DNA from: Candidatus Parcubacteria bacterium
GTDB taxonomy: Bacteria > Patescibacteriota > Microgenomatia > UBA12405
Assembly (NCBI GenBank): GCA_023396915.1
Contig: JAEWUV010000002.1
Location: 86,087 to 150,086 of the forward strand
Length of the DNA stretch: 64,000 nucleotides
Direction: 5' to 3'
Shown here in pieces: positions 323-47,764 of this stretch (its first letter is position 1; each line of letters begins with the position of its first letter). A program made the position numbers and the translations under genes. The notes beneath the pieces were generated by a model. It searched no databases and was not told where the DNA came from. It saw only the letters and a list, made by a program, of their open reading frames with translations.

Positions 323-2650
323 CTATAGACGGTAGATACTGGTTTGACCAGACTGAAAAACAACTTTGGCACCAATTTGTTCAAATTTTTTTGGGTCTAA
401 AGTTTTATATTTTTCGTATTCTTTGGCACCGATAAAAATATATTCAACTTTATATTTTGATAAAAGATCTTTTACTTCAGACAAATTAGTTTCATCTGTT
501 TCTGAATTAAATTCAGTTTTTGGAAACTCCACAGGTAAAACAAGTCTTTGATTGGGATGAATAATCGAAGGGTTTTCTAGGTTATTAACCTTAGCAATTT
601 CAATCCATAAAAATTCATTTTTTAATTCATTTTTGGCAATATTCCAAAGACTGTCTCCTGTTTGTACAGTATAAGCTTTTTGATCTTTATTATTTTCAAT
701 ATTTTCGGTTGATGATGTTGAAAAAAAATTATAGATTTTATCAACATCTGTCTGACGGGCGGCGGGGGCATCGTAACCACCACGCCAGAGCCATTCATGG
801 ACAATCCAACCTTCGACAGTAGGCAAACCGGTAGTAGAGGAAATTTGATTAAAAGTGGTGTAGCTATCGCCTACCGCTTCTAACATAACCGGTTGACTGG
901 AAATATTTTGATTAATCCATAAGACTGCTTGGTAATTATCCGGATAAAGTTTTTCTAGATACTTTAACCCATCTAAACCTTTGTAGTTTTTTAGATCATT
1001 GTAATAGGATTTAATGGCAAAATATGGATAAAACATATGAATAAAAAAAACGGTTAGAAAGCAAAAAAAGTAAATAAACTTAATAATCTTTGATTTAAAA
1101 AGATAAGAAAATCTAATCAGAACATAACCAGAAGAGAGAGAATAAAGGATAAAAGCCTGATACACAAGTTTGAACATGGTATTGGCCCGACGATATTCAT
1201 AAATATAAATGTCTTTGATATAAATTAGTTCCGGAATAAGAATTAATAGTGAGGCAATTAAAATTAACGAAAATACAAAAAAATCAGATTTAGTAATTTT
1301 TTTTCTGAAAGGAATAGTAAGAGAAAAAGGTAGGCAGATTAACCAAAAACCACCATAAAGAATAAGCAATTGATAAAAAGGTGAATGGCCATCGGCAATT
1401 TTTATGCCCTCCATCATGGGGATGAAATTGAGGGAAAATGGATAGGAAAAAAGGTACCAAAAAGCAATCACTAATAAACCGTTGATAAAAGTTTTGGCTA
1501 AATTTCTAATATTAAATTCATTAGCATTAATTAAAAAAGAAAAGACGGCTAGAACTAAGCCATAAACAGCAAAATCCCAGGCGTTGGTCATATAACAAAT
1601 TGATAAAACAAAGCCGGAACCAACGATAAATTTCCAATTAAAAAAGTTTTTACTTTTCTCAACAGTAATAAATAGAAAGGCCAGAAATAAAATAACAATA
1701 AAAATATCATTCATGTGACCGTGAAGATCGGAAACGACAAAACTGTAAAGAGGAAATTCATGGATAGTTTTGTCATTAGTGTCCGGGTCATGACCAATAA
1801 AACGGGTAGCGTCAGGATACCAATAAGAGTTCGTTGCTTTAGAAATGGCTTTTTGATTTAAAATAAAATGATTATTGTTCTGCTGGTAATCAAGTTTGAT
1901 AATTTTATAAAGTGAGTGAAGATTGCCGCCAAAAGTAAGAAGTAAGGCAGAAATAAGACCGGCTAAAATAGCAACACGAAACCCTTTCCTAACCTTTCCC
2001 TTGACAGGGCAAGGAACTAGGTACGTTATATTGGAAACTAAGGAAAAAGCACTGACAAAAGTAAGAGAGCAAACTGTAGCGATGGACAGGTTGTATCCAA
2101 CCGAAGAAATAACAGTAGAGAGTTTGGTGATTAAGGCAAAAATTAAATGACCGAAATAGTAGTAATTGATTGTTTCGCCAGCAAACCACATGTCTTGTGG
2201 AGGTAGAAACTGAGATCTCAAAGCTGAATTAACAAATCCCCAATCCATATATTTTTCTAAGCCCTCAATATCAGGAGCAAAACCCCGAACATAAGACCAT
2301 AAAGTTAAAATCAGAAAAAAAATCAGTTCTTCAAAAATAAAAACACGATAATGTTTTTTGAAATCAGAAAAAAAACTTTTATATGTTTTATTTTTTAGCA
2401 GAAACCAAACATCAAATAAAATAAAAATGGTAATTAAAAATAAGAGTCCGGTATAGGTAAACGGAATAAGTTTAAAGACTCCGAAGATTAGGGAAAAATA
2501 AGTTAGAAGAATCAAAGAGACAGTTTTACTGAAAATATAACCTTTGTCCCAAAATTTATTAAACAGAGAAACGGTTATGGGTAAAGACAGAATTCCCAAC
2601 AAAAAAATAGTTAGCCACCAATTAAAAATGAAATGAAAATCAGAAAACAT
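323..2650 (-). CDS. DUF2298 (Chlor_Arch_YYY) polytopic membrane protein with a C-terminal LysM domain
   Basis: Many transmembrane segments. Carries the signature INYYYFGHL motif. C-terminal YTVQTGDSLWNIAK...NPSIIHPNQRLVLP matches a LysM peptidoglycan-binding domain. Confidence 0.55.
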   Translation of the reverse strand: MFSDFHFIFNWWLTIFLLGILSLPITVSLFNKFWDKGYIFSKTVSLILLTYFSLIFGVFKLIPFTYTGLLFLITIFILFDVWFLLKNKTYKSFFSDFKKHYRVFIFEELIFFLILTLWSYVRGFAPDIEGLEKYMDWGFVNSALRSQFLPPQDMWFAGETINYYYFGHLIFALITKLSTVISSVGYNLSIATVCSLTFVSAFSLVSNITYLVPCPVKGKVRKGFRVAILAGLISALLLTFGGNLHSLYKIIKLDYQQNNNHFILNQKAISKATNSYWYPDATRFIGHDPDTNDKTIHEFPLYSFVVSDLHGHMNDIFIVILFLAFLFITVEKSKNFFNWKFIVGSGFVLSICYMTNAWDFAVYGLVLAVFSFLINANEFNIRNLAKTFINGLLVIAFWYLFSYPFSLNFIPMMEGIKIADGHSPFYQLLILYGGFWLICLPFSLTIPFRKKITKSDFFVFSLILIASLLILIPELIYIKDIYIYEYRRANTMFKLVYQAFILYSLSSGYVLIRFSYLFKSKIIKFIYFFCFLTVFFIHMFYPYFAIKSYYNDLKNYKGLDGLKYLEKLYPDNYQAVLWINQNISSQPVMLEAVGDSYTTFNQISSTTGLPTVEGWIVHEWLWRGGYDAPAARQTDVDKIYNFFSTSSTENIENNKDQKAYTVQTGDSLWNIAKNELKNEFLWIEIAKVNNLENPSIIHPNQRLVLPVEFPKTEFNSETDETNLSEVKDLLSKYKVEYIFIGAKEYEKYKTLDPKKFEQIGAKVVFQSGQTSIYRL
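1981..2016 (+). repeat. Degenerate copy of the REP-like hairpin element, embedded in-frame in a coding sequence
   Basis: The core tttcccttgacagggcaagg is identical to the copies at 15381 and 63482. On the minus strand it encodes PCPVKGKVRKG within the DUF2298 protein. Confidence 0.35.
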
Positions 2651-2651
2651 A

Positions 2652-3236
2652 TTATTTTATTAGAAAAATAAAATCAAAAATTGGTTTAATAAAATTAATC
2701 ATAAAAAGGGGGAACTGAATCTGTTTAATTAAAACTCCTATTATTAGACCAATAATTATTCCTCCAAGAACATCAATCGGATAATGGAGCCCTAATATAA
2801 TTCTGGCTAAGATTAAAGGTAGGGCAATAATTAAAAACCAAAAAGGGCTAATTAAAATACCGGTATGAAGAATCAAGATGAAAAAGAAAACTGCCTTGAT
2901 GGCATGCCCGGAAGGGAAACTCCCTTTTTTATACCAGGATTTTAAAAGACCATTGGGTAATACATTGTTGTTTAGATGAAGCGGACGTTTCCAAAGTGAT
3001 TTAGTTTTTAGAACTTTTTCAACGATTTCACTAATAATAGTGGCAAAAAACAGTTGCCAAAAAATATTCGTATCTTGCTTGATTAAAAGATAGGAAATGA
3101 AAAAGAAAAAGACCCAAATGATATAGTTAATAAGGATTAAGAATTGATTACCGTATTTAGTTTGAGAAACATATTTGAAAAGATCTTTTTTTGGTTGCCA
3201 GAAAAAAATTTTTTTTAAAAGAGTATTTGATTTCAT
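2652..3236 (-). CDS. PAP2-family (type 2 phosphatidic acid phosphatase) membrane phosphatase
   Basis: All three PAP2 motifs are present: KxxxxxxRP (KSLWKRP), PSGH (FPSGHA), and SRxxxxxHxxxD (RIILGLHYPID). Multiple transmembrane helices. Confidence 0.6.
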   Translation of the reverse strand: MKSNTLLKKIFFWQPKKDLFKYVSQTKYGNQFLILINYIIWVFFFFISYLLIKQDTNIFWQLFFATIISEIVEKVLKTKSLWKRPLHLNNNVLPNGLLKSWYKKGSFPSGHAIKAVFFFILILHTGILISPFWFLIIALPLILARIILGLHYPIDVLGGIIIGLIIGVLIKQIQFPLFMINFIKPIFDFIFLIK

Positions 3237-3240
3237 AAAA

Positions 3241-4290
3241 TTAAAATAAAAGTTTGGCTAATTTGAGAATGCCTTGGCTCCAGGGAACCCGATGAGAAAT
3301 CCCCTTCTGACCCTCAAATTCTGAAAGATGATTAATATACCATTTATAATTTTCAATCAAAGCCTGTTGATTGGAATATTTTGGTTTAAAATTTAATATT
3401 TTTTGAGCTTTATTTATAGAAACAAAAGAGTCAGTAGCGGCTGTTTCATAAACCCAGGCATAAAGGGGAGATAAATGGAGAGCTTCTAAAACTTTTAATA
3501 AAAAAATAGCTGGAGCGGCGGGAATGGTAACTATTTTTTTACCAAAGCCAGCATAATCTAAGACTGATTGATAATCCTGTCGCATGGTTTTAAATTCTTT
3601 GGCTCCGATATTAAAAACATCATTAACTTTTGATTTACTTAAAGTCATAGTCGACCAAATGGCATCACAAAGGTCTTTAACGGCCAGAAGTTGATATCGA
3701 TTTTTACCATCACCTAAAAGAGGAAATCCGTGTCCGTCTTTGGCCCAGTCATAGAATAAGGCAAAGACCCCCAATCTTTCTGGACCAACAAATGATTTTG
3801 GGCGAAGAATCGAAACACATAAACCTTTTTTTCTAAAATCGCGGCAAAATTTTTCGGCTTTAATTTTTGATTCACCATAAGGGCCAACACCAACAACTTT
3901 GTCAGTTTCGTAAATCGGGTGATGTTTCGGGACCCCATAAACGGCAGTTGAAGAAATATAGACAACCCGTTTTACCTTATTTTCTAAAGCTGATTGTAAA
4001 ACATTTCTAGTACCGTCAACTTCGGTTGAAATAATATCTTCTTTTGAATACAACGGTAAAGCGGCGGCGAAGTGAAGAACAACATCGGCACCTTTCATAG
4101 CCTTGGTTAATGTTTTTTTATCACGAATATCGGCAATAAAACTGGTAATTTTTTTCTTCTCGGGATAATTAAATTCAGCAATATCATAGTTAATAACTTT
4201 TTGATTTTTTTTGAGTAAAAAGCGAACCATATTGATTCCTAAAAATCCTGATCCACCGGTAATGAAAATAGTTTGAGTTTTGTTGTTCAT
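3241..4290 (-). CDS. NAD-dependent epimerase/dehydratase (extended SDR family)
   Basis: N-terminal Rossmann motif IFITGGSGFLG. Catalytic YxxxK motif in YGESKIKAE. Length of about 350 aa fits the extended SDR family. Confidence 0.75.
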   Translation of the reverse strand: MNNKTQTIFITGGSGFLGINMVRFLLKKNQKVINYDIAEFNYPEKKKITSFIADIRDKKTLTKAMKGADVVLHFAAALPLYSKEDIISTEVDGTRNVLQSALENKVKRVVYISSTAVYGVPKHHPIYETDKVVGVGPYGESKIKAEKFCRDFRKKGLCVSILRPKSFVGPERLGVFALFYDWAKDGHGFPLLGDGKNRYQLLAVKDLCDAIWSTMTLSKSKVNDVFNIGAKEFKTMRQDYQSVLDYAGFGKKIVTIPAAPAIFLLKVLEALHLSPLYAWVYETAATDSFVSINKAQKILNFKPKYSNQQALIENYKWYINHLSEFEGQKGISHRVPWSQGILKLAKLLF

Positions 4291-6038
4291 TATTTTTTGT
4301 TGGTATTTTTAAATATTATAACCCGAGGATGATCATAAACGGTGAATGATTCGTCGGCTGATTGGTCATTAATTTCCAGACCTAAAAAGGAAGGGTTATT
4401 ATCAAATTCAGCAACTTTGATATATCCCAATTTACCGCTAAAAAGATTTTGATAGTAAGCGGCAGTACTGGTGTAGCAATAACCTGATGGAAGATTATTA
4501 CAATCAGTTAGTTTTTGAAGTGGAACATAAAGTCGATTACTGGCAATAATTAAATAGTCAGCTGAGGAAAGCTGACTGAAGATGTTGGACCATTTATCTG
4601 GTAGATTGTCAGAATTATATAAAGGAAGGTCGATTAAATTGTAATTAGTATACCCAAGTGGTAAACCATCATCCCAATGTTCTCGAAGAATAGTGCTATT
4701 AGCCGGAATATTTTGGTTGATCCAATTGGTGGCTAAAACCCGGGTATTAGGAAAATTATAAATAGTCATAAAAGCGAAAAGCCAAAAAAGGTTGAAACAT
4801 AAAAAAATAGTGATGAGGTATTTTTTAAAAGTACTTAAAATACTAGCAATAAATATCGCCAGGATAGGATAAAGAGGAAGACAATACCTCATAAACTTAA
4901 CAGCAAAACAACCAACAACTAAAAAATAGGCAATAAAAAAAGAAAAAATAATTAGCTGTGATCCTTCTGATGTTTCATTTCCTGGAGTAATTAATCCTTT
5001 TATTAATTTTTTGATAGTGATAAAAATTCCTAATAAAGCAAGTAATCCAAAAGACGGACCTAAGCCCCATAAAAAAATATTTTTAATTTGATACCAATAA
5101 GGAACAGTATGAACATATTGAAGAGTATAAGGAAAAACAAAAGCATTTTTGGTCATGGCATTTTGCTCATTAATTTGTCGCCAAAAAGTGGTGAAATCAA
5201 AAAGAGCAAAAGGTTCACAAACAATAAAGGTGATGACAGTAAAAACTATTATTAGTAGTAAATAAAAAATTATTTTTTTAAATTTAAAAAAACGATTTTT
5301 TAGCCAAAATTTAGGACTTAGAACTGAGATTAAATATTGTTTAATTTTTTTTAAAAAACTGATTTCTTGACTAAAAATTTCTTTTTTGAGACTAAGTAAA
5401 GTTTCGACTAAAAAACTAAAGAAAAATGAAATAACCAGAACTGTGGCACTGACTTTGGTAGCCAGAGCTAGGCCGAAACAAATACCGGAAATAATAGCGT
5501 TTTTGACGCTTGGTGTATGGTAAAGAATTAGTAAACGGTAAAGTGTCAGACAGATAAAAAAGGTGAGTAAAGTATCAACAGCGTAAAAATGGGAAAGTTG
5601 GATGGGAAAAACTGATAAAGCATAAATTATGGCGGCTGATAAGCTTGTTTTGTGGGAAGAAAACAATTTTTGAGTGATTTGGTAGATAAGTAAAATAGTA
5701 AAAGAATCAAAAAGGGCAGAAATTACCCGGCCAAGTAAATTAATTTTGTCGTAAGTCAGAATTTGAGGATTAAAGACAGAGAAAAAATAAGCTGAAAATT
5801 TTAAAAGATATATAGGAAGAGATCCATAGGCAAAAAATTTGGGATTAAGAGAAGAATTCGGATTAAATAAGCTAAAAAAAGAAAATTCTTTTGGAAAACT
5901 TATGTTCATAGCAACCATGGTAATTTGCCGTTCGTCAGGATGAAGATGAAAACCCTGATCCCAATTTAAATGATAAATTCGCAATATAAAGCCAATAACA
6001 AAAATCAAAAACAAAACCCACTTATTCATAATTTTCAT
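4290..6038 (-). CDS. GT-C glycosyltransferase (GT39/PMT_2/ArnT-like, polyprenyl-phosphate-sugar dependent)
   Basis: Polytopic membrane protein with the N-terminal HLHPDERQ loop motif (the DE motif of ArnT/PMT-type transferases). A large C-terminal soluble domain is present. Confidence 0.6.
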   Translation of the reverse strand: MKIMNKWVLFLIFVIGFILRIYHLNWDQGFHLHPDERQITMVAMNISFPKEFSFFSLFNPNSSLNPKFFAYGSLPIYLLKFSAYFFSVFNPQILTYDKINLLGRVISALFDSFTILLIYQITQKLFSSHKTSLSAAIIYALSVFPIQLSHFYAVDTLLTFFICLTLYRLLILYHTPSVKNAIISGICFGLALATKVSATVLVISFFFSFLVETLLSLKKEIFSQEISFLKKIKQYLISVLSPKFWLKNRFFKFKKIIFYLLLIIVFTVITFIVCEPFALFDFTTFWRQINEQNAMTKNAFVFPYTLQYVHTVPYWYQIKNIFLWGLGPSFGLLALLGIFITIKKLIKGLITPGNETSEGSQLIIFSFFIAYFLVVGCFAVKFMRYCLPLYPILAIFIASILSTFKKYLITIFLCFNLFWLFAFMTIYNFPNTRVLATNWINQNIPANSTILREHWDDGLPLGYTNYNLIDLPLYNSDNLPDKWSNIFSQLSSADYLIIASNRLYVPLQKLTDCNNLPSGYCYTSTAAYYQNLFSGKLGYIKVAEFDNNPSFLGLEINDQSADESFTVYDHPRVIIFKNTNKK

Positions 6039-7567
6039 AGATTATTATTTTTGAAAATTCTAATGGTTGGGTTGTCAAAAACCGACCAGGTTTCTTCGGC
6101 ATTTTCGGAATTTAAAAAAAGGCTATTTGATTTGGAAAAGGTTTTAATTTGAGAAAAACCTAGCTGGCCGGAAAAAAGTTTTTGATAATAATCTTGCGAC
6201 ATAGGAAATGATGGATTATTTTGATTTTTAAAAACTCGACGAGAAGGAACAAAAATATATTCGCTTTGATTGATAACTTTGGATAGCTCATCCCCTTTTT
6301 GATTTTCATCTAGGGTATAAAAATCAAAATTGGTAATATTTAGTTTGGAATTGAATAGAGGTATGTCAACAACATTGCCGCCCTCTGACAAAACATTACT
6401 ACTTATCGGAATGTTTTGATTAACCCAGTTTGTGGTCTGAATTCGGATATCGGAATTAAAATAAGTGCTAATAAAAAAATAAATGCCCGGCAGAATGCTG
6501 AAAAATATTAAAAAAACTCGGATAAATTTATTTTTGATTTCCCTAAAGAAAAATAAACTTAACAGCGGAGCAATAAAAAAAATTGGAGACATAAAACGGG
6601 TCCATTTGGAAAAAAGTTGACCCTGATAAATAAAGAAAACAAGTGAGGAAAATAAAGTAATTAATAGGTAAATGTTTTTTTTGTTTTTAAAGAAATTTTT
6701 GACAATAAAACCAAAACCAATAAAACTAAAAATAAAGATAAAAATACCATTAGTGTAGGGAAATATATTTTTAAATTGGAACAAATAAGGTAAGGTGCCA
6801 ATAAATTGACGAGTATAAAAAACAGGGATGGACCCATTAGCAACACCGATTTCATATTTCATTGAGGAAATAAATTCCCGATAATCAATCAAATTAAAGG
6901 GAGACAATATTACAGAGAAAATGAGAGCGACTAAAATTAAAAAATAAAATTTAGGGATTAAATCAGAAATTTTTTTAGGGTTTTCTAAAAAAAGAAATAA
7001 AAAAACAAAACAAATAGGAGCTAAAAAAATAAGAGCTGAAATTTTGGTGGCAATACCGATACCGGAAGTAATAGCGGCAAAAAATAAATATTTATATTGA
7101 GGGTTATCAAAAATAAGAAAAGAGAAATAAATATTTACAGCAAAAATAAAAATAAGAATTGATTCGGTGGTGCCAAAATGGGCCAACTGAATTAACCCAG
7201 GAGTAAAAATAATTAAGATAGATAAAATAGTGGCTAATTTGTTTGAATTAAATATTTTTTTGCCAATTAAATAAAAAATAAAAACCGAAATAGAAGAGAA
7301 AAAGGCTGACCAGAACCTAAGGGTTAGATTAATATTAAAGTTGTTATGTTGAGGGGTGGTAAAAAATGTAAGGTAAAGAGGGAATTGTCCGTAAGCAAAA
7401 AATTTGGGATTAAAATTTGTTGGATTTAAACGTAAAACAGCTGAGACCATATTGTTTTCATCCGGATGAAAAGCAAAACCGTTGGACCAATTAAGTTTCC
7501 AAAATCGAGTAAATAGAGTTAAAAAAAACAAGAAAATAAACAAGAAAAAGCGTTTTTTAGATGACAT
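6035..7567 (-). CDS. GT-C glycosyltransferase (GT39/PMT_2/ArnT-like), paralog of the upstream gene
   Basis: The AFHPDENNMVSAV motif follows the first transmembrane helix. Architecture parallels 4290..6038. Its stop/start overlaps the neighbour by ATGA. Confidence 0.6.
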   Translation of the reverse strand: MSSKKRFFLFIFLFFLTLFTRFWKLNWSNGFAFHPDENNMVSAVLRLNPTNFNPKFFAYGQFPLYLTFFTTPQHNNFNINLTLRFWSAFFSSISVFIFYLIGKKIFNSNKLATILSILIIFTPGLIQLAHFGTTESILIFIFAVNIYFSFLIFDNPQYKYLFFAAITSGIGIATKISALIFLAPICFVFLFLFLENPKKISDLIPKFYFLILVALIFSVILSPFNLIDYREFISSMKYEIGVANGSIPVFYTRQFIGTLPYLFQFKNIFPYTNGIFIFIFSFIGFGFIVKNFFKNKKNIYLLITLFSSLVFFIYQGQLFSKWTRFMSPIFFIAPLLSLFFFREIKNKFIRVFLIFFSILPGIYFFISTYFNSDIRIQTTNWVNQNIPISSNVLSEGGNVVDIPLFNSKLNITNFDFYTLDENQKGDELSKVINQSEYIFVPSRRVFKNQNNPSFPMSQDYYQKLFSGQLGFSQIKTFSKSNSLFLNSENAEETWSVFDNPTIRIFKNNNL

Positions 7568-8486
7568 AGACGATAGTAATCATCATCAAACCCCAAAGAA
7601 GAAGAGATAAAAGTAAAGGAATATCGGTGGCAACAACCCGTTCAGGACGCTCACCTTCTTGCATTTCGAAAATAATCTGACCATAACGCATAATGCCAAA
7701 GATTACTGGGATTAAAGTAATCATGTACCATTTTCTGTATAAGGCATTGGGGAAATTTTGAGACATAAATGAATGGATGATTCCATTAAACGAGATTGGT
7801 TCTTCCAAAAAAGTAAACATAGCATAAGCGATGAGAGTGCAGACAGCAAACATGGTGGTATAAAAATTAAGAAGATTTTTACCGTAACCGGCGAGGGCAC
7901 TTCTGGTGATGATACCGGTATTCCCGAGTTCAGTTCTCCTTTTACCGCTAGCCAAAAATAAAGAAAGGAAGACAACGGCTAGCATAATCCAAATCGGCAA
8001 ATGATAGCCGGTGGCAATTTCTCCGGCGTAGGTACGAAGAATAAAGAAAAAGGCAATTCCAATAATATCGATAATTGCCTTTTTCTTGAGAAAGAGAGAA
8101 TAGGTATATTGTAGGATGATAAAAACAAAAGAGAGCCAGAAAAATCCAGTATTAATAAATACGGCAATAGAAAGGCCGGTAAATAAAAGGATAAAAGCAA
8201 TTAGAATAGCAAATGGTTGGGAGATATCTCCGCGGGCAAGAGGACGACTTTTTTTGACAGGATGAAGCCTGTCTTTGTCAACGTCCATGACATCATTAAT
8301 TAAATAAGAAGATGAAGAAAGAAGACAAAAAACTATAAAAGCCAAAAGAGTTTTTGAAAATAAATTAATATCAAAGAGTTGTCCGTTTAAAATTAAGGCA
8401 GCAAAAATACCTAAATTTTTAATCCATTGAGCCGGACGTAAAGCCTCAAAAATAAATTTTATATTTGGTTTTGTTTCTTTGGTCAT
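7557..8486 (-). CDS. UbiA-family prenyltransferase, decaprenyl-phosphate phosphoribosyltransferase-like
   Basis: NDVMDVDKDRLHPVKKSRPLARG fits the UbiA Asp-rich motif with the HPxK...RP signature. About 8 transmembrane helices. Confidence 0.55.
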   Translation of the reverse strand: MTKETKPNIKFIFEALRPAQWIKNLGIFAALILNGQLFDINLFSKTLLAFIVFCLLSSSSYLINDVMDVDKDRLHPVKKSRPLARGDISQPFAILIAFILLFTGLSIAVFINTGFFWLSFVFIILQYTYSLFLKKKAIIDIIGIAFFFILRTYAGEIATGYHLPIWIMLAVVFLSLFLASGKRRTELGNTGIITRSALAGYGKNLLNFYTTMFAVCTLIAYAMFTFLEEPISFNGIIHSFMSQNFPNALYRKWYMITLIPVIFGIMRYGQIIFEMQEGERPERVVATDIPLLLSLLLWGLMMITIVYVI

Positions 8487-8494
8487 GTGTGATG

Positions 8495-9727
8495 TTATAT
8501 TTTTTTATAAAAGATAAAGGCAAATATAATTAGAGCTAAGGATAGCACCATAATAATACTAGTGGGGCCGGTGTTGCCTGTTTTGGGAACACCTGAAGAA
8601 GTGCTGGGAACACTGGTAGGGATACTGGTTGGCGTAGGGGTTGAGGTTGGTTTTATGGTAGGAGTAGCTGACGAAGAAGCAGTAAAAGATGTATTTGATT
8701 CTGCAGCTAAAACTATAAATTTTTTACTAATAGTATTATTATTTTCGTCAGTTAATGTGACAGTGTGTTCGCCGGGGCTTAGGTCTTGGGGCACTTCCCA
8801 ATCCCAGCTCCCATCTTCGTTTGTGGTTACAGAATCATTTATAGCCACTGGGGAATGAACTTCAATTTTAAGCTCGGATCCCGGTTGGGCAGTGCCAAAA
8901 AATTCAGGTCGCTTGGTAGACAAAGTTTCATTGTCACTAGGATTAGAAATTGTCAGAGGAGTATCAGTAGTAAAGTTATATTCATTATCCAATAAATTAG
9001 TTTGGGGTAATTCAATTTCAACAACCGGGCTTGGGGCAGAAAAATTGTTTTGTCCAATAATAATATCAGAGACTGGATTATTATGATTAGTATTGGAAAT
9101 AACTTGAGTTTGGGTTTGGTCATGGTTAATAACAACGATATTTTCTTCAGTATTTGAAGGGGGAGAAAAATAATCTGTTAATGATTCATTAAAACTGGTA
9201 GCGAGTGGAATATTCCACTCGCCAGAAGAAGTTACTAAGGATGAAAGAGGAGATGCTCCGGCAACCGAAAAATAAACAATAGCTTCGGTGGTTGGGGTTT
9301 TGTCTTGATTATAAATTCGTCCCCAAGCTAAGTTGGAGCTAGGCATTTGATTATTTGGTTTTTTGGCAGTTTTGAAATTAAAATTATCGGAAGAATATTT
9401 TTCCCCGTCACTGATAACGGAAAAAGTATAAACCTGAAATTCTTTTAAGGAAATTATTTCAAAATAATGAATCTTGCCTTTACCTTTATTATTCTCTATA
9501 GTTTGTCCAGAAAGGGAGATTGTTGAAAGACAGTCGGCTGAAGTAGTAAAAGAAATACTGGCAGAATTGTTGGTGATATTGGTTATTTGAAGGTTTATAG
9601 GGTCACAACTGCCACCAGCCCGGCTTGAGGTATTAGTCCGACGAGTGGCCAAAGAAATACCAAAATATAAGGTAAGTAAGAGTAAAATTAGACCAAAGAT
9701 AGTTGGTATTTTTTTCTCCTTTTTCAT
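8495..9727 (-). CDS. Secreted surface protein with a C-terminal sortase-type sorting signal (VPKTG, then a TM segment, then a basic tail)
   Basis: N-terminal signal peptide. A Thr/Pro/Ser-rich stalk precedes VPKTGNTGPTSIIMVLSLALIIFAFIFYKKI. Confidence 0.45.
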   Translation of the reverse strand: MKKEKKIPTIFGLILLLLTLYFGISLATRRTNTSSRAGGSCDPINLQITNITNNSASISFTTSADCLSTISLSGQTIENNKGKGKIHYFEIISLKEFQVYTFSVISDGEKYSSDNFNFKTAKKPNNQMPSSNLAWGRIYNQDKTPTTEAIVYFSVAGASPLSSLVTSSGEWNIPLATSFNESLTDYFSPPSNTEENIVVINHDQTQTQVISNTNHNNPVSDIIIGQNNFSAPSPVVEIELPQTNLLDNEYNFTTDTPLTISNPSDNETLSTKRPEFFGTAQPGSELKIEVHSPVAINDSVTTNEDGSWDWEVPQDLSPGEHTVTLTDENNNTISKKFIVLAAESNTSFTASSSATPTIKPTSTPTPTSIPTSVPSTSSGVPKTGNTGPTSIIMVLSLALIIFAFIFYKKI

Positions 9728-10005
9728 AGTTTATTAACTTTACCACTAGGGGTTGAATTAACTTCGTTATTGTTTGGGTAAAAATTAATAGAATTAGATT
9801 CGATATTTTCCGGCCTTTTTTCAATCTCTTCTATAATGTCTAAATCAAGATTTGGATTAATGGGAGTAAGTAATTTATTTGAATCAACTTCTTTGACTGG
9901 ATTGACTAAATTAAAATAACTTTTTTGAACTATACTAGAAAAAATAGTCAAAAAACTAAAGATAGAGATAAAGATAAAATAAACTGATAGTTTCTTTTTA
10001 TTCAT
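9724..10005 (-). CDS. Small signal-anchored protein, function unknown
   Basis: 93 aa with an N-terminal hydrophobic segment. Translationally coupled to its neighbours. Confidence 0.3.
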   Translation of the reverse strand: MNKKKLSVYFIFISIFSFLTIFSSIVQKSYFNLVNPVKEVDSNKLLTPINPNLDLDIIEEIEKRPENIESNSINFYPNNNEVNSTPSGKVNKL

Positions 10006-10600
10006 TATTTATCGGTAAATAAGGTAAATTAGTTGATATATCCAAGTTGATGCCGTCTGTGGTTTGATTAATAGTAATAGAGTTAATATCTATAAGACGT
10101 CGACCGTAAGTTATATTGTTAATCATATTTAAAAGACTTGAATAAGGTCCACCGAGAGAGAGATTAACGTCGTAAGAGTATTTTTGAGAGTCGGTATTTT
10201 TTTGATTAGAAAGATTATATTTGAGTTGTTTTATAGAAACATCTGATTTACGTGATATGGAAGAAAAATTTGAGGCTGTTAGATAAAATTCGGGATTAGA
10301 AGGGTAACTTGATTCTAAAATCTGAAATTTTTCCTGAGCTTGAGCATAATTACTTTGAGCAGAAACAACATTAATTATTTTTTGTTTCATCGACTTGGTT
10401 GTAAGTTCTTTTGACTTAATTTCACCAACAAGTTTAGAAATGGCGGAGGCAGTAGGAGCTATGGCGGTAATTAAAAATACAGTTACCAAAAGAAAAGTGG
10501 CGCTAATTTCGACATATTTTAAAAATTTTTTATTTTCTGCTTGACTCCGAACATATCGATAAATGGATTGATTTTTGAACCAACTAGTTTGTTCTATCAT
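9998..10600 (-). CDS. Bitopic membrane protein, PilO-like topology (tentative)
   Basis: Short cytoplasmic N-terminus, one transmembrane helix, then a coiled-coil periplasmic region. Length is about 200 aa. Confidence 0.25.
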   Translation of the reverse strand: MIEQTSWFKNQSIYRYVRSQAENKKFLKYVEISATFLLVTVFLITAIAPTASAISKLVGEIKSKELTTKSMKQKIINVVSAQSNYAQAQEKFQILESSYPSNPEFYLTASNFSSISRKSDVSIKQLKYNLSNQKNTDSQKYSYDVNLSLGGPYSSLLNMINNITYGRRLIDINSITINQTTDGINLDISTNLPYLPINNE

Positions 10601-11166
10601 ATAGTTTGAGAATTTTTAAAAACTATAGAGATGTTAACTAAATAATTATTTTCTTGCTGTTTTTTTTCAATTTGATTAATTTTAACTGTTTCTATGTTAG
10701 GGTTAAGGGTTAAATTTTTAATAAAATCGATAATTGATGTTTCATTAAAAGCGATTAAAGAAGCGGTGGCAGATATTTTTTTTAGGTCTTCTTCTTTGCC
10801 AACTGACAGATTTTTGTAAATAATATCTTTTGGAGTGCTATTGACCAAGGTGGCTATTTTTTGATCATATTGAGGGTCGTTACGATAAAAAGCCTGAATA
10901 AACTCAAGTCTTTGTTGAAAAGATTTAAATTCACTTTCAAACTCTTGAGTGCTTTCTAAGATAGCTTGTTGCTGACGAATTGTTTCTGAAAGATCAGAAT
11001 TTTTTCTGTCTAACCAAAATCTAGAGATAAAAGCTGAAACAACAATCAGTTCAGTAAAAACAATAACCCAACGGCCAACGGTAGTGAGCCATTTGATGGC
11101 TTTAGCACTAAAGGAATTAGGATTTTCCGAATCTGGCAATAAAGATAACTCCTTTTTAATAGGCAT
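10597..11166 (-). CDS. Bitopic membrane protein, PilN-like (tentative)
   Basis: The N-terminal LSLLP motif resembles the PilN INLLP motif. One transmembrane helix plus coiled coil, 189 aa. No PilM gene is adjacent. Confidence 0.3.
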   Translation of the reverse strand: MPIKKELSLLPDSENPNSFSAKAIKWLTTVGRWVIVFTELIVVSAFISRFWLDRKNSDLSETIRQQQAILESTQEFESEFKSFQQRLEFIQAFYRNDPQYDQKIATLVNSTPKDIIYKNLSVGKEEDLKKISATASLIAFNETSIIDFIKNLTLNPNIETVKINQIEKKQQENNYLVNISIVFKNSQTI

Positions 11167-11210
11167 ACATTTAAGTATATATGACTATTAGTTTAAATTA
11201 AATACTTATC

Positions 11211-12848
11211 CTATCTGATCCTATCTGAGGAGGGTTTTTTAAAAGTTAATTTGTTTTTAAATTTTAAAAAATATTTTTGATAATCCTGATACTCATCTAA
11301 TTTTAAGAATTTGACGCTATAAATATAAGAAATAATTCCAGTTAAACTGGAGGCAGAAAATACAATTGCTAAAGGAATAGTTCTGGTAGTATCAAGTAAA
11401 AATAAATCCATAAACTTGAGGCTTACCCAAGTAAAAATACCCATAAATAAAGAGGAAAGGAGTATTTTATTAACTTTTTTTAAGGTTTTTAGCCAATCAA
11501 AACCATCAACAAGTTTGATAAAGAAATAAAAAAGACCAACTGTTTGAATAAGATTTCCAATGGTTGAACTTATGGCTAAACCAATAACACCAAGCGAAGT
11601 AAAATTGATTAAAAGGAAACTAGTAATGACGTTAAAAAATAAAGAAACTAAGGAAACTTTAAAGGGAATTTTGGTATTGTGAAGTGCATAAAAAGAACGA
11701 ACTAAGATTTGAATTATAGCCTGACAAATAATAGCTGGAGTTAAAAAAGCTAAAATTCTGGCAGTGGTTAAAGTAGCTTCCCAAGGGAAGTTTTGAGAAC
11801 CAAAAAGGAGGCGGACGATGGCTAATCTTTGGACTAAAATAATAACGGTTACAGGCATAGCAATGAATAGACTTTGGGTAAGGATTTTGGCGATGGTATC
11901 ACGAAAATCCTTAAGTTCATTTCTGGCGATGTTTTTTGATAAAATTGGCAAAGAAGCCTGTCCAACAGTGGTTCCAAAGATACGGCTGGGAAGATACATT
12001 AGTTGTAAAGCCAAATTAAGCAAGGAGATAGAACCGACGGACAAACCACTGGCAAAAAATAAAGTAACGGTATTTTCAATTTCACCTAATCCAAGGGATA
12101 AACTACGAGGGATCATCAATCTAAAAACTTCTCTGACTTCTTTGAGTTTGGTGGTAATAATTAATTCATACTTAAATCCCTGACGTTTAACTACCGGAAT
12201 TTGGATGGCCAAATGGAAAAAAGCGCCGACAACAGCTCCGTAGACCACTCCGTAAATACCAAAAATCGGGGCTAGAGTAAAAATACTTAAGATGATAAAA
12301 AGGTTATAAACGATGGGAGAAAGGGCTGGAATTATAAAAATTTGGTTAACTTGCAAAATAGCAGTAATAAAATTACTGATTAAGAAAAAAATCTGAGCAA
12401 TAAGTAAAATTCTGGTTAAATTGACCATTAAATCTAACTGCTCTGGATTAAAACCAGCGGCGATTAAGTTATTTAGGGGTCGGGTAAAAATTAAAACAAT
12501 AATGGCGGCGACAGCAAATATTAAAAACAGAAGATTGATGACGCTAGAGGCAATTTTGTAAGCTTTTTTGGGATCTTTTTGTAGGCTCGCTGAAAATACC
12601 GGGATAAAAGAAGCGGATAAAGCACCGGTAACTAAAAGTTTAAAAATTAAATCGGGAAGGCGAAAAGCGGCATTGTAAACATCGAGCTGGGCGGTACAAC
12701 ATTTAAAAAAGGCAGCGTATAAAAAACGACTTCTGAGAAAACCTAAAATAGCAGATAATCCGAAAGTTACGGCTAAAACAATAGATGCTGACAAGATGGT
12801 ATGTTGTTTTCTTTGGGTGAAAGATTGGATTTTTTGGCTCAGCATCAT
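11211..12848 (-). CDS. murJ: Lipid II flippase MurJ (MviN)
   Basis: 545-aa polytopic protein. The N-terminus (LSASIVLAVTFGLSAILGFLRSRFLYAAFF...YNAAFRLPDLIFKLLVTGALSASFIPVF) aligns with the MurJ consensus. Confidence 0.8.
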   Translation of the reverse strand: MMLSQKIQSFTQRKQHTILSASIVLAVTFGLSAILGFLRSRFLYAAFFKCCTAQLDVYNAAFRLPDLIFKLLVTGALSASFIPVFSASLQKDPKKAYKIASSVINLLFLIFAVAAIIVLIFTRPLNNLIAAGFNPEQLDLMVNLTRILLIAQIFFLISNFITAILQVNQIFIIPALSPIVYNLFIILSIFTLAPIFGIYGVVYGAVVGAFFHLAIQIPVVKRQGFKYELIITTKLKEVREVFRLMIPRSLSLGLGEIENTVTLFFASGLSVGSISLLNLALQLMYLPSRIFGTTVGQASLPILSKNIARNELKDFRDTIAKILTQSLFIAMPVTVIILVQRLAIVRLLFGSQNFPWEATLTTARILAFLTPAIICQAIIQILVRSFYALHNTKIPFKVSLVSLFFNVITSFLLINFTSLGVIGLAISSTIGNLIQTVGLFYFFIKLVDGFDWLKTLKKVNKILLSSLFMGIFTWVSLKFMDLFLLDTTRTIPLAIVFSASSLTGIISYIYSVKFLKLDEYQDYQKYFLKFKNKLTFKKPSSDRIR

Positions 12849-23584: not shown

Positions 23585-24145
23585 TTAAATTTTAAAATAT
23601 TTATCTTTCTCCCAATTTATAACATTATTTTTAATATATTGTTTAATGGTGGAATACTGTTTTTGGTCTTTGACAATAATATCGTGATAACGAGGTTGCC
23701 AAGCAAAAAAGACGGTTTTAGGATTGATTTGACGGGTAACAGCTGACTTGAACTGTTTTATAACTAAAGGAATAGTTTGAGTAGAACGAATAGCTATTCG
23801 GTGATAAAAATAATTATTGTATCTTTTAGTTAGAGACGCATCATGATGCGTCTCTACAGGGTTAAATGAAGTTGATTCAAGATTTAAAAGTAGGTGGATA
23901 TGATTAGGCATAATTACGAATTCACGAATGAAAATATTTTTGAAATGTTTAAGGATGTCAGTAAGACATTGATTAGCGATTAGTCCCATTTTGGATAATT
24001 CCATTTGTTTATTAATTATTTTGCCAAAGAAATTATTGTGTTGATAAGTACAAATGGTGATGAAGTAAATGCCTGAAGTTGAATAATTGTGATTTTTTAG
24101 ACGAGGAGAAGATAGGCGATATTTGGAGGCAAATTTATTTTCCAC
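23585..24145 (-). CDS. RAYT (REP-associated tyrosine transposase) / IS200-like Y1 HUH transposase family protein, single-domain
   Basis: HUH motif (VIMPNHIHLLL). C-terminal AWQPRYHDIIVKD...IKQYIKNN matches the catalytic Tyr region of the IS200/RAYT family. 186 aa. Confidence 0.65.
   Translation of the reverse strand: MENKFASKYRLSSPRLKNHNYSTSGIYFITICTYQHNNFFGKIINKQMELSKMGLIANQCLTDILKHFKNIFIREFVIMPNHIHLLLNLESTSFNPVETHHDASLTKRYNNYFYHRIAIRSTQTIPLVIKQFKSAVTRQINPKTVFFAWQPRYHDIIVKDQKQYSTIKQYIKNNVINWEKDKYFKI
23831..23856. repeat. Perfect 26-bp palindrome tagagacgcatcatgatgcgtctcta inside the transposase CDS
   Basis: The reverse complement is identical to the forward sequence. It is in-frame and encodes ETHHDASL within 23585..24145. 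Confidence 0.9.
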
Positions 24146-25380: not shown

Positions 25381-26070
25381 TTAGAGATGTTTGATAATTA
25401 GCAAAGGGACGTAAACATCTTTTTGGCAAGATAGGACAAATTCAACAGCATCAACGACGGATTCTACCGGTAAAGCAATAGAGTGGTCGATAGGGATTTC
25501 TTTTTTGAAATTGGTATCCATAAGACCGGGACACAAGCTGATTACTTTGATGCCATAGGGTGAAAGGTCAAGTTGAAGAGATTCAGTAAAACCCTGACAA
25601 GCATATTTAGAAGCATGATAAACAGTATTAAGAGCTTTGGGATAATGACCGGCGGTAGAGTTTACATTTAAAATAGTCCCCTCTTTTTGTTTTTTCATAT
25701 GAGGAATGACGTATTTACACAGATTCATTTGACCAACCACATTAACGTCAATTACTTGTTTGAATTTAACCGGATCATTATCGTCAATTTCACCCTCGAT
25801 ATAGATACCGGCATTATTGATTAAATAATCAATTTTTTGGTATTTATCGATAATAAAATCAACGGCTTTTTTGACTGACTCGTGATTGGCAACATCACAG
25901 AAGTGATAATCACAATTAAATTCTTTGGCGGTGGCAGCGGCTGCAGTTTCGTCAAAATCGAGGATAATAATTTGATAATCTTTGGAAAGGCGAGCAACAA
26001 TGGCACGACCTAAACCATTGGCCCCGCCAGTAATACATATAATTTTTTTATCCATGACTGATTTTAACAA
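25381..26070 (-). CDS. Short-chain dehydrogenase/reductase (classical SDR)
   Basis: TGGANGLGRAI cofactor motif, NNAG, and the YHASKYA catalytic YxxxK motif. Confidence 0.7.
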   Translation of the reverse strand: MLKSVMDKKIICITGGANGLGRAIVARLSKDYQIIILDFDETAAAATAKEFNCDYHFCDVANHESVKKAVDFIIDKYQKIDYLINNAGIYIEGEIDDNDPVKFKQVIDVNVVGQMNLCKYVIPHMKKQKEGTILNVNSTAGHYPKALNTVYHASKYACQGFTESLQLDLSPYGIKVISLCPGLMDTNFKKEIPIDHSIALPVESVVDAVEFVLSCQKDVYVPLLIIKHL

Positions 26071-26112
26071 AATTTATACTAATTTTATTTTATGATTTAA
26101 TAAAGGGTAATT

Positions 26113-46996: not shown

Positions 46997-47764
46997 TTGA
47001 GTAAAAGAGAATGCTATACTGGGGTTAATATGATTCAATTTAACCAAGCTAAAGATAGAATAATTATTCCGGTAGATACCAGTGATTTGGATTCTGCAAT
47101 TGAAAAAGTAAAGTTGCTTAAACCATATGTAGGGATGTTTAAATTTGGTTTGGAATTGTTAAATACTATGTTGGCGGGAGTCGTCTCTGGCGATGAAAGT
47201 GTGGCAGAAAAAGTGAAAACTTTGTTTAAAGAGACTGAAGGACAATTATTTTGGGATGGAAAATGGGATGATATCCCCAATACTGTGGGAAAAGCATCGG
47301 CGGCGGCAAAGATGGTTAACCCAAAGATGGTTGATGTCCATGTTTCATCTGGTGCCGGGGCAATAACCGAAGCAGTCAATGCTAACCCAGATACGATTGT
47401 TTTGGGAGTAACTGTGTTAACTAGTATTACCGACGAGGAAAGTATGGTTATTTTTGGAAAAAACGCCAAAGAGAAAGTAGTAGATTTTGCCAAAATGGCA
47501 ATAGCGGCTGGAGCTAAAGGAGTTGTTTGTTCACCACAAGAGTTGGCTTTGTTGTCAGAATTTCCTGACTTAATTAAAGTAACCCCAGGAGTTAGACCTG
47601 AATGGGCGGCAGTTAATGACCAAAAAAGAGTCATGACTCCGTCAGAAGCGGTAAAGAGCGGGGCTGATTATTTAGTTATCGGCAGACCAATTACCGAGTA
47701 TCCGGACGAACAAGGCGGACCGGTGGCAGGAGCTAAAAAGGTTGCCGAAGAAATAGGAGAATAA
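46997..47764 (+). CDS. pyrF: Orotidine 5'-phosphate decarboxylase
   Basis: LFWDGKWDDIPNTV (the Asp-Lys-Asp active-site block) and VDVHVSSG match the OMP decarboxylase consensus. Confidence 0.7.
   Translation: MSKRECYTGVNMIQFNQAKDRIIIPVDTSDLDSAIEKVKLLKPYVGMFKFGLELLNTMLAGVVSGDESVAEKVKTLFKETEGQLFWDGKWDDIPNTVGKASAAAKMVNPKMVDVHVSSGAGAITEAVNANPDTIVLGVTVLTSITDEESMVIFGKNAKEKVVDFAKMAIAAGAKGVVCSPQELALLSEFPDLIKVTPGVRPEWAAVNDQKRVMTPSEAVKSGADYLVIGRPITEYPDEQGGPVAGAKKVAEEIGE

Follow-up and report, generated by a model that had tools for sequence, protein, structure and literature searches.

We propose that a run of minus-strand genes in a Shapirobacteria (CPR) genome encodes a pathway for a polyprenyl-phosphate-pentofuranose donor, which serves extracytoplasmic glycosylation by GT-C enzymes. 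From the sequence comparisons reported here, we give this reading a probability of about 0.7. In kind, it most likely belongs with the mycobacterial DPR/DPA pathway and with the pentofuranose systems of the 'three-component' type described by Kelly et al. 2024. Coordinates refer to the window, i.e. the whole 64,000-nucleotide stretch of DNA that was analysed.

Organisation and conservation of the gene run

An ORF check of the window found all six minus-strand ORFs reported by the first-pass annotation, and their assignments (UbiA, two GT-C transferases, SDR, PAP2, and DUF2298 with LysM) were upheld by Pfam and NCBIfam profiles. From UbiA to DUF2298, the five junctions measure -11, -4, -1, +4 and +1 nt, a spacing that indicates tight packing or translational coupling of the six genes. 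The packing is real, but the six genes had been placed within 2652-8486, and the DUF2298/LysM gene lies outside this range, at 323-2650. Upstream of UbiA, the tight same-strand run goes on with genes for a surface protein, three bitopic proteins and MurJ, and the transcription unit probably extends to position 12848. Scans for promoters and terminators gave nothing above chance.

The locus was compared with 78 related loci, in which UbiA identity ranges from 63 to 85%. The order surface protein, UbiA, GT-C 1, GT-C 2, cassette, PAP2, DUF2298 was found in nearly all of them. The segment between GT-C 1 and PAP2 behaves as a swappable cassette, which differs even between close relatives and resembles a serotype-like variable region. 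Other cassettes carry GT4 and methyltransferase genes, implying a glycan more complex than a single pentose. The linkage initially put forward thus holds across the 78 loci for UbiA, GT-C, PAP2 and DUF2298, but not for the SDR, which was found in ~11 of 56 related loci and is absent in the closest relatives of the window. The SDR is an optional gene of the variable cassette, not a core one.

Could the grouping be incidental, the result of unrelated envelope genes being crowded into a genome that is small and dense? CPR genomes are indeed gene-dense, and the promoter and terminator scans are compatible with this idea. However, gene order stays fixed over the 78 loci while cassette content turns over, and the same functional combination recurs in unrelated phyla, with non-homologous phosphatases. 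Synteny effectively refutes this explanation, which we consider extremely improbable.

The UbiA protein is a predicted phosphoribosyltransferase

The UbiA-family protein (7557-8486, 309 aa; PF01040) is, judging from its profile scores and residues, a polyprenyl-phosphate 5-phosphoribosyltransferase (PPPRS/DPPRS-like) and not a prenyltransferase of the quinone or heme type. The top NCBIfam model is decaprenyl-phosphate phosphoribosyltransferase NF008978, with 202.4 bits, just below the equivalog cut-off of 207 bits. Scores against DPPRS models range from 161 to 202 bits and those against quinone, heme and chlorophyll UbiA models stay under 60 bits, so that DPPRS models score 3 to 4 times higher than any prenyltransferase model. 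The protein therefore groups with the DPPR synthases, as the first reading of its motif NDVMDVDKDRLHPVKKSRP (residues 64-82) had suggested.

The top PDB match is Rv3806c (8j8j, E 9.5e-39). Among 14 functional residues of Rv3806c that were checked, 12 are identical (R22, K28, Y70, N73, D74, D77, D81, K87, R90, Q135, Y138 and K143), and these 12 are nearly invariant across 73 related sequences; the two departures are Y157 to F and K208 to S. The phosphoribose-specific residues K28, Y70, N73 and Q135 are thus kept, together with the pyrophosphate-binding K/R cluster. According to the paper on the Rv3806c structure, these phosphoribose sites do not occur in ordinary UbiA enzymes (PMC10994848). PRPP-using enzymes are encoded elsewhere in the window, hence the organism has PRPP. 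NCBI annotation already labels homologues as DPPR synthase, adjoining GT39 genes, in many taxa.

The PAP2 protein is a candidate 5'-phosphatase

The predicted PAP2 lipid phosphatase (2652-3236, 194 aa) scores 60.3 bits with PF01569. Its three catalytic motifs, noticed at the outset, are all present: KTKSLWKRP (77-85), PSGH (108-111) and ARIILGLHYPID (144-155), the third opening with AR, not SR. All three are kept in 55 of 56 orthologues, and in nearly all loci the gene immediately precedes DUF2298. By its sequence, the protein is a candidate 5'-phosphatase of polyprenyl-P-ribose-5-P. It had been presented as the counterpart of mycobacterial Rv3807c; this was too strong, as the protein aligns only weakly with an Rv3807c orthologue from Rhodococcus (35% over 51 aa), which would make it a relative at the family level only. 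Its top named NCBIfam models are undecaprenyl-diphosphate phosphatases (~34 bits, far under cut-off), so that it could recycle the lipid carrier instead.

Three GT-C proteins

GT-C glycosyltransferase 1 (6035-7567, 510 aa) matches Pfam PMT (43.9 bits) and PMT_2 (41.7 bits), and GT-C glycosyltransferase 2 (4290-6038, 582 aa) matches PMT_2 (50.4 bits), all above the gathering score. Both carry an HPDE motif after TM1, located in a loop in GT-C 1. The latter has ~10 hydrophobic segments and a C-terminal soluble domain of 144 aa, and gave no PDB match at the sequence level. It is a conserved core member, with an orthologue (44-68% identity) directly after UbiA in nearly all loci. GT-C 2 is variable: alleles with 45% identity or more to that of the window ('type A') occur in just 8 of 53 loci, the other 45 alleles being 25-38% identical. 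In the 8 type A loci, the neighbour is an SDR gene in 6 and a DUF362 gene in 2, and none has GT4; SDR presence is associated with the GT-C 2 allele type (Fisher p = 3e-5).

The third protein, DUF2298 / Chlor_Arch_YYY (323-2650, 775 aa), is another conserved core member (PF10060 315 bits, TIGR03662 475.7 bits). It adopts a GT-C fold, with a likeness to AftA, AftD and AftB, and also to oligosaccharyltransferases. Its LysM insert (33.4 bits), carried by only a subset of orthologues, hints at the cell wall. The three GT-C proteins have no detectable similarity among themselves or to the partners seen elsewhere.

These data bear on an alternative in which the donor for the GT-C enzymes is a polyprenyl-P-hexose or polyprenyl-PP-oligosaccharide synthesised elsewhere, PAP2 being a carrier-recycling polyprenyl-diphosphate phosphatase and UbiA having a different role, e.g. 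prenylating another acceptor. The named PAP2 matches, the mannosyltransferase families PMT and PMT_2 matched by the GT-C proteins, the oligosaccharyltransferase-like fold of DUF2298, and the MurJ and GT4 genes present near, in the locus of the window or in related ones, are in its favour. Nevertheless, the PAP2 matches fall far under their cut-offs, and neither a GT2-type polyprenyl-P-hexose synthase nor an initiating phosphoglycosyltransferase was found in the cluster or in the scanned cassette families. UbiA retains the PRPP-specific residues of Rv3806c, the partner of Rv3807c, and its DPPRS scores exceed those of every prenyltransferase model. We judge this alternative improbable, and keep the pentofuranose pathway.

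The SDR: an epimerase within the pathway?

The extended SDR (3241-4290, 349 aa) scores 137.6 bits with PF01370, and has the motifs GGSGFLG (12-18) and YGESK (138-142). The residues S113, Y138 and K142 are present, and the dehydratase D-E pair is absent. The closest fold to its model (pLDDT 88) is the UDP-glucose 4-epimerase 4zrn (TM 0.76/0.85), and no similarity to a DprE2 homologue was detectable. The SDR is GalE-like, not DprE2-like, and the likeness to DprE2 considered at first was not borne out. No signal peptide was found in the protein. A conserved hydrophobic helix (253-271) is followed by a conserved C-terminal tail.

Relatives of this SDR (33-68% identity) have DPPRS-like UbiA genes close by in Zambryskibacteria, haloarchaea, Streptomyces, Nonomuraea and rhizobia. 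In Zambryskibacteria, another CPR class, a 68%-identical SDR lies directly behind a HAD-UbiA fusion. Fifteen relatives are plasmid-borne (33-47% identity), and all 7 whose position was checked are within ~0.2-6 kb of a DPPRS-like UbiA; the Rhizobium CCGE531 plasmid is among these. A single SDR acting as epimerase has a precedent in ORF13 of Citrobacter youngae O2 (PMC11127046). Given this precedent and the linkage in distant lineages, the SDR is a plausible candidate epimerase of polyprenyl-P-ribofuranose, in line with what had been suggested. No evidence favours arabinose in particular: DprE1 and DprE2 are missing, and the sole characterised single-SDR case yields xylofuranose (PMC11127046).

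Another possibility is that the core pathway holds with the SDR outside of it, as a nucleotide-sugar epimerase or reductase for another sugar of the same glycan; the GT-C donor would then be plain polyprenyl-P-ribofuranose. The SDR is nearest, in fold and sequence, to UDP-sugar 4-epimerases and dTDP-glucose dehydratases, most related loci do without it, and UbiA is lacking in the neighbourhood of its close orthologues in Roseiflexus, WWE3 and Anaerolineae; moreover, the Leloir GT4 genes of other cassettes need nucleotide sugars. Yet type A cassettes with the SDR have no Leloir glycosyltransferase to use such a sugar, and the hydrophobic helix and tail are missing from the aligned soluble homologues. 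With the repeated proximity to UbiA in CPR, haloarchaea, actinomycetes and rhizobia, and the ORF13 precedent, this makes an SDR outside the pathway unlikely, though a more serious contender than the alternative based on hexose donors.

Upstream genes: a candidate acceptor and a candidate flippase

The surface protein (8495-9727, 410 aa, minus strand) starts with a TM or signal segment and contains a Big_13 Ig-like domain (29.9 bits). Its C-terminal part has a stalk rich in Thr, Pro and Ser, the motif VPKTG, a TM segment and a KK tail; of 65 orthologues, 40 showed a [VI]PxTG-like motif. In essentially all loci that reach far enough upstream, an orthologue is encoded between the bitopic proteins and UbiA, usually as the immediate upstream neighbour of UbiA. 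We infer that this protein is a candidate glycosylation acceptor. Further upstream, three overlapping minus-strand genes (9724-11166) with conserved synteny encode small membrane proteins of 93, 200 and 189 aa with one TM segment each, the middle one being PilO-like (PF04350, 26.4 bits). The first gene of the co-oriented run encodes MurJ, a MOP-superfamily flippase (11211-12848, minus strand; PF03023 260.1 bits; TIGR01695 263.9 bits, above the cut-off of 235.55 bits); the gene is syntenic wherever the locus reaches far enough upstream.

Proposed pathway

At the cytoplasmic face, UbiA would move ribose-5-phosphate from PRPP onto polyprenyl phosphate, a step strongly indicated by the family scores and the conserved PRPP-binding residues. 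PAP2 would then strip the 5'-phosphate to give polyprenyl-P-ribofuranose, as we infer from its conserved linkage and from the precedent of Rv3807c, to which it is related at the family level. In SDR-bearing genomes, including that of the window, the cytoplasmic NAD-dependent GalE-like SDR may epimerise the lipid-linked ribose, either at C3 as ORF13 does, giving Xylf, or at C2, giving Araf; the sequence fits either. In characterised integral-membrane PAP2 enzymes, however, the active site faces outward, which would place dephosphorylation after flipping, beyond the reach of a cytoplasmic SDR. The lipid-linked donor would be flipped, with MurJ, at the head of the run, as the only candidate; the cluster holds no dedicated flippase gene. 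Outside the membrane, the pentose would be transferred by GT-C 1, the cassette-specific GT-C 2 and DUF2298, the likeliest acceptors being the surface protein, on its Thr/Pro-rich stalk, and/or a polymer of the wall.

Comparison with known systems

Like the mycobacterial decaprenyl-phospho-arabinose pathway (Rv3806c, Rv3807c, DprE1/DprE2, Emb/Aft), the cluster has a DPPRS-type UbiA that stands alone and keeps the PRPP-binding residues, a phosphatase of the PAP2 family as a separate protein, and several GT-C transferases, one of which, DUF2298, has the Aft-like fold. In contrast, there is no GtrA-like Rv3789, the PAP2 protein is not demonstrably orthologous to Rv3807c, and the SDR is of the extended GalE-like type. 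A DprE1-like FAD oxidase, already reported missing, was found neither among the scanned window ORFs of ~150 aa or more nor among the ten commonest variable-cassette gene families of 56 related loci, and no DprE2-type classical SDR was found in the cluster, the window or the scanned related cassettes.

In Pseudomonas aeruginosa, group IV pilin arabinosylation involves TfpW and the PsPA7 D-Araf biosynthesis operon (PMC11127046). There, a GT-C enzyme draws on a lipid-linked pentofuranose derived from PPPRS to O-glycosylate Ser/Thr of a surface protein encoded beside it, as may also be the case in the window. In contrast, the TfpW system employs DprE1/DprE2 homologues, and its acceptor is a type IV pilin, whereas the neighbouring protein in the window combines an Ig domain with a Thr/Pro stalk and a sortase-like signal.

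A parallel is offered by Kelly et al. (PNAS 2024), who defined a three-component logic, which they call widespread, with a UbiA-type synthase, phosphatase, flippase and GT-C enzyme, and with a single SDR epimerase as an option (PMC11127046). In Citrobacter youngae O1/O2, ORF15 (PPPRS and phosphatase), a MATE flippase, ORF12 (GT-C) and ORF13 (single SDR epimerase) were shown experimentally (PMC11127046). The window differs in having a separate PAP2 instead of a fused HAD phosphatase domain, MurJ nearby instead of a MATE or SMR flippase, and three GT-C proteins of other families (PMT-like, DUF2298). Its host is a monoderm-like CPR bacterium, in which a protein or wall polymer, not O antigen, is the probable acceptor. 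Shared features are a UbiA-type polyprenyl-phosphoribose synthase acting on PRPP, followed by 5'-phosphate removal, an optional single GalE-like SDR altering the pentose (ORF13 being compared by its description), sugar transfer by GT-C outside the membrane, and diversification of the glycan by epimerase gain or loss. Furthermore, the Rhizobium CCGE531 plasmid, a candidate system in their list (PMC11127046), carries an SDR relative 33.5% identical to that of the window. The cluster had been taken at first to imply an undescribed system; this fails because the same logic was published in 2024 (PMC11127046), and NCBI already names the homologues. It is most likely a new example of that kind of pathway, in which the CPR host, the DUF2298 protein with its GT-C fold, the hypervariable cassette and the candidate acceptor protein are new.

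Organisation of the gene run

Eleven co-oriented ORFs occupy minus-strand positions 12848 to 323; a single gap measures 44 nt, and the other junctions either overlap or leave at most 8 nt. In order of transcription, they encode MurJ (11211-12848; TIGR01695, 263.9 bits for a cut-off of 235.55), three single-pass membrane proteins, one of them weakly PilO-like (9724-11166), a surface protein of 410 aa (8495-9727), UbiA (7557-8486), two PMT-like GT-C proteins, GT-C 1 (6035-7567) and GT-C 2 (4290-6038), an extended SDR (3241-4290), a PAP2 protein (2652-3236) and a DUF2298/TIGR03662 protein with a LysM insert (323-2650). The first-pass annotation had placed six genes, UbiA to DUF2298, between 2652 and 8486. 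Its gene list and motifs were correct, except that the sixth gene, DUF2298, lies beyond this range, and the gene unit probably starts further upstream than was proposed. Promoter and terminator scans of the run gave results no better than shuffled sequence, so that the operon limits are drawn from spacing and strand only.

MurJ and the three overlapping single-pass-protein genes (9724-12848) form a block whose synteny with the glycosylation genes is kept in every related locus. The weak PilO match raised the possibility of a type IV pilus accessory cluster (cf. TfpW); this was set aside, as the match is a single one, pilin and PilM are missing, and the head gene is MurJ.

UbiA belongs to the phosphoribosyltransferase branch

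Model scores and ligand conservation place the UbiA protein, by computation, in the DPPR/PPPR synthase subfamily (DPPRS, Rv3806c type), and the corresponding enzyme activity is predicted. The NCBIfam DPPRS models gave 202.4 bits (NF008978), 172.8 (NF008977) and 161.0 (NF008976), against 57.6 bits for the best non-DPPRS prenyltransferase model; the top score, that of NF008978, is 4.6 bits short of the equivalog cut-off. The closest solved relative found by PDB sequence search is Rv3806c of M. tuberculosis (E 9.5e-39). UbiA therefore does not group with the quinone and heme enzymes, in agreement with its initial description as DPPRS-like.

The Rv3806c structure paper names the ligands of Mg, ribose, 5′-phosphate and pyrophosphate, and the phosphoribose sites are not common to ordinary UbiA enzymes (PMC10994848). 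We compared R22, K28, Y70, N73, D77, K87, R90, Q135, Y138, K143, Y157 and K208, and found 10 of these 12 ligands identical in the window UbiA. The two exceptions are Y157, changed to F as in some mycobacteria, and K208, changed to S with the neighbouring R207 retained. D74 and D81 of the Rv3806c acidic motif are kept as well. Among 73 related sequences, R22, K28, Y70, N73, D74, D77, D81, K87, R90, Q135, Y138 and K143 are invariant or nearly so. An exhaustive search with UbiA yielded 1,062 clusters (50% identity) at E ≤1e-30, meaning that the subfamily is large.

Elsewhere in the window, three phosphoribosyltransferase-domain proteins (47767-48456, 49277-49885 and 53249-53866) are accompanied by OMP decarboxylase and carbamoyl-phosphate synthase (46997-47764 and 59212-63479). 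PRPP-dependent nucleotide synthesis is thus kept, which implies that PRPP is available.

Phosphatase, flippase, transferases and acceptor

In PAP2 the three catalytic motifs are intact, and so they are in 55 of 56 orthologues; its gene shares with UbiA one co-oriented cluster maintained in nearly all loci. PAP2 would act as the 5′-phosphatase of the pathway. Its likeness to the Rhodococcus Rv3807c orthologue is at the family level (35% over 51 aa), and the best named NCBIfam models, undecaprenyl-diphosphate phosphatases, are far below cut-off. No MATE, SMR, EamA or GtrA gene was found in 323-12848; the only flippase-type gene there is MurJ, above the TIGR01695 cut-off, and it would be the candidate flippase.

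The GT-C proteins have about 9-11 hydrophobic segments and C-terminal soluble domains of 144-235 aa. Both PMT-like proteins show about 9-10 such segments, HPDE after TM1 and a C-terminal soluble domain, and in DUF2298 residue D35 is invariant. The multi-TM core, the acidic residue in the first outside loop and the C-terminal soluble domain bear out the GT-C fold first proposed. PDB sequence searches with the two PMT-like proteins gave no match; those with DUF2298 gave matches through the LysM domain only, hence the use of a fold search for this protein. A minority of the DUF2298 orthologues carry LysM. Literature searches returned no relevant report on DUF2298 function.

In the surface protein (8495-9727), an Ig-like Big_13 domain is combined with a stalk rich in Thr, Pro and Ser; a VPKTG motif, a TM segment at the C-terminus and a KK tail are also present. 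This neighbour is a putative acceptor of the glycan, an assignment that we hold to be doubtful. Across the protein and its orthologues in the UbiA-bearing related loci (L001-L076), the Thr/Pro-rich stalk is conserved and accompanied by a [VI]PxTG-like motif, a TM segment and a basic tail, features that resemble a sorting signal for sortase. Among the window ORFs scanned, no sortase gene was detected.

The extended SDR and its association with UbiA

The SDR (3241-4290) is of the extended type, with GGSGFLG and S113/Y138/K142 present; the D-E pair of 4,6-dehydratases and a signal peptide are absent. Its predicted structure (pLDDT 88) has UDP-glucose 4-epimerases as closest folds. Of the two comparisons proposed at the outset, with UDP-sugar epimerases and with DprE2, the first showed a GalE-like fold, and in the second BLAST gave no match with a DprE2 homologue from Chondrinema. 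A hydrophobic helix (residues 253-271) and a C-terminal HRVPWxQGxLxLAK-like tail would suit an enzyme that acts at the membrane surface; residues 247-292 are left out of the best PDB sequence alignment.

Relatives of this SDR are unusually conserved, with 66-69% identity in Chloroflexota and other CPR lineages. In Zambryskibacteria, a 68%-identical orthologue comes immediately after a HAD-UbiA fusion, an architecture like that of Citrobacter youngae ORF15. In Roseiflexus (L079:10001-13751), a 66%-identical orthologue immediately precedes genes for a wall-polymer ligase of the LCP family and MurJ, and UbiA is absent from the surrounding 10 kb; the SDR family may thus serve wall polymers in a role not always tied to a synthase gene. 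No related neighbours were found for the WWE3 and Anaerolineae orthologues.

When plasmids were searched by tblastn with the SDR, the 15 best matches were full length and 33-47% identical. Seven of these could be positioned, via UbiA matches or annotation, and all seven are situated ~0.2-6 kb from a DPPRS-like UbiA: two in Natronococcus, and one each in Halostagnicola, Streptomyces SAT1, Nonomuraea, Rhizobium CCGE531 and S. fredii NGR234. The phosphatases in these loci are PHP, EEP or HAD proteins, and their GT-C partners also differ from those of the window. The proximity to UbiA indicates that the SDR subfamily travels with the synthase across domains, which supports a role of the SDR on the lipid-linked pentose. 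We slightly favour the reading that the SDR acts on this lipid-linked pentose, its exact substrate and the position of epimerisation being putative.

The Rhizobium locus holds two different extended SDRs, one of which resembles the window SDR. On the symbiotic plasmids of Rhizobium CCGE531 and S. fredii NGR234 (L091 and L094), the conserved locus is beside nodS and encodes HAD-UbiA, the two extended SDRs, a GMC oxidoreductase, an SMR transporter and a 658-aa membrane protein with no Pfam domain. For the "hypothetical" neighbours of HAD-UbiA in Vibrio and a sphingomonad, neither a BLAST match with the SDR nor a Pfam domain was found, and a distant blastn search of E. coli genomes with the Vibrio HAD-UbiA gene gave no match.

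The UbiA-linked SDR subfamily is present in the window, Zambryskibacteria, haloarchaea, Streptomyces, Nonomuraea and rhizobia. Its members could be one-enzyme NAD-dependent 2′-epimerases, turning polyprenyl-P-ribose into polyprenyl-P-D-arabinofuranose without DprE1/DprE2; CPR and haloarchaea would then carry D-Araf glycans, and DUF2298 would be a pentofuranosyltransferase family not assigned before. We consider this combination improbable; if true, it would represent a D-Araf route unrelated to the tuberculosis drug target.

A conserved core and a variable cassette

A genome scan detected 78 related loci (UbiA identity 63-85%), the synteny of which was mapped by tblastn with all eleven window proteins. 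The order is near-universal: MurJ, three small proteins, surface protein, UbiA, GT-C 1, GT-C 2, a variable 0-5 kb, PAP2 and DUF2298. The gene linkage inferred from the window alone is therefore conserved for the core genes. It does not extend to the SDR, an orthologue of which (61-85% identity) was found in just 8 loci, and a distant SDR (~25% identity) in 4 further ones. Among the nearest relatives by UbiA identity (L001, L002 and L005, 79-85%), L002 and L005 are without SDR, and L001 is uninformative as it ends at UbiA.

In 31 loci the variable stretch carries, on the opposite strand, GT4 glycosyltransferases; SAM-dependent methyltransferases of the FkbM type and others, additional PMT_2 proteins and the SDR also belong to its gene types. 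Two allele classes of GT-C 2 were distinguished. Eight loci carry type A (at least 45% identity to the window), next to which the SDR is found 6 times, DUF362 twice and GT4 never; 45 carry type B (below 45%), with an SDR orthologue in 2 and GT4 in 31 (Fisher's test, p = 3e-5, without phylogenetic correction). In the two loci with DUF362 at the SDR position (L003:10650-11723 and L073:4884-5939), a protein of ~355 aa replaces the SDR beside the type A GT-C 2, and may be an alternative modifying enzyme. Type A loci are spread over the range of UbiA identity, hence the cassette is exchanged independently of the core, like serotype-determining regions.

The records of many related contigs (L001, L002, L004, L005, L026 and others) bear labels like "uncultured Gammaproteobacteria" or "Candidatus Methanoperedens". 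The genes on these contigs, together with an identity of 65-85% with the window, mark them as Shapirobacteria-like, so that mislabelling or wrong binning is probable.

Other loci of the window

At 25381-27462, the gene of a classical SDR on the minus strand (229 aa, adh_short 180 bits) lies next to, and diverges from, a plus-strand gene for a further PMT_2 GT-C protein of 449 aa with weak likeness to Agl23; this is a possible second lipid-linked glycosylation locus. The SDR (25381-26070) was considered as a DprE2 candidate; all of its 25 best matches in NCBIfam belong to generic SDR families, and none is a DprE2 model. Three plus-strand genes lie at 35902-39072: one for a protein like GH130 mannoside phosphorylases, one for a GT4 glycosyltransferase and one whose product matches GH88 and C5-epimerase weakly. 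A 186-aa ORF with a partial IS200-like (Y1 transposase) match is present at 23585-24145.

Significance and comparison with known systems

We estimate at roughly 70% the probability that the overall pathway, a lipid-linked pentose surface glycosylation, is correct. The observation of the first-pass annotation was confirmed in part and its interpretation is supported in part. Microgenomates and Shapirobacteria are ultrasmall and thought to live attached to host cells; to our knowledge, nothing is known experimentally of their envelope glycans. The pentofuranose-donor core, the adjoining Thr/Pro-rich surface protein and the relative-specific cassette together suggest surface-glycan variation under diversifying selection, perhaps by hosts or phages. 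The cluster offers a first testable functional context for DUF2298/TIGR03662, annotated "function unknown", and likewise one for the SDR subfamily that accompanies DPPRS genes in bacteria and archaea. Its value is for these two families and for CPR envelope biology, and not for any new pathway logic.

The same logic has indeed been shown experimentally in Citrobacter youngae (Kelly et al., PNAS 2024, PMC11127046), so that the system cannot be called undescribed, as had been proposed. There, ORF15 unites a UbiA-type polyprenyl-phosphoribose synthase and a HAD phosphatase in one fusion protein, and ORF13, a lone GalE-like SDR, suffices to turn the Ribf donor into Xylf; a MATE flippase exports the donor, and ORF12 is a GT-C transferase, founder of family GT136; Araf systems use DprE1/DprE2 homologues (PMC11127046). 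Literature searches found no relevant report of such a system in Patescibacteria.

As in the systems of Kelly et al., a predicted synthase and a putative 5′-phosphatase are encoded together in the window, and a GT-C fold transferase is in the locus. The candidate phosphatase is however PAP2 and not HAD, and the window is without the dedicated MATE or SMR/GtrA flippase. The single SDR is Citrobacter-style, and the separate PAP2 mycobacterial-style. Features of the ORF13 type are found in the window SDR, which is predicted cytoplasmic, GalE-like, endowed with TGxxGxxG/YxxxK-type motifs and encoded with a PPPRS. Whereas the DprE1/DprE2 epimerase consists of a FAD oxidase and a classical short SDR, the window SDR is of the extended type. 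The initial remark that a DprE1-type FAD oxidase is lacking holds for the cluster, the scanned window ORFs and the scanned cassette families, and no DprE2 was found among the latter.

The Rhizobium CCGE531 plasmid, among the systems listed by Kelly et al. (PMC11127046), was also recovered here by tblastn with the SDR. The same combinations recur on annotated plasmids: a Lactococcus plasmid encodes a 533-aa hypothetical protein, DPPRS, HAD, GtrA and LCP, a Chondrinema plasmid DPPRS, a FAD oxidoreductase, a short SDR and GT39, and a Legionella plasmid DPPRS and GT39, while a Rhodococcus plasmid has the mycobacterial arrangement. From the logic of Kelly et al. and these annotated plasmid loci, we conclude that the window belongs to an already known kind of system.
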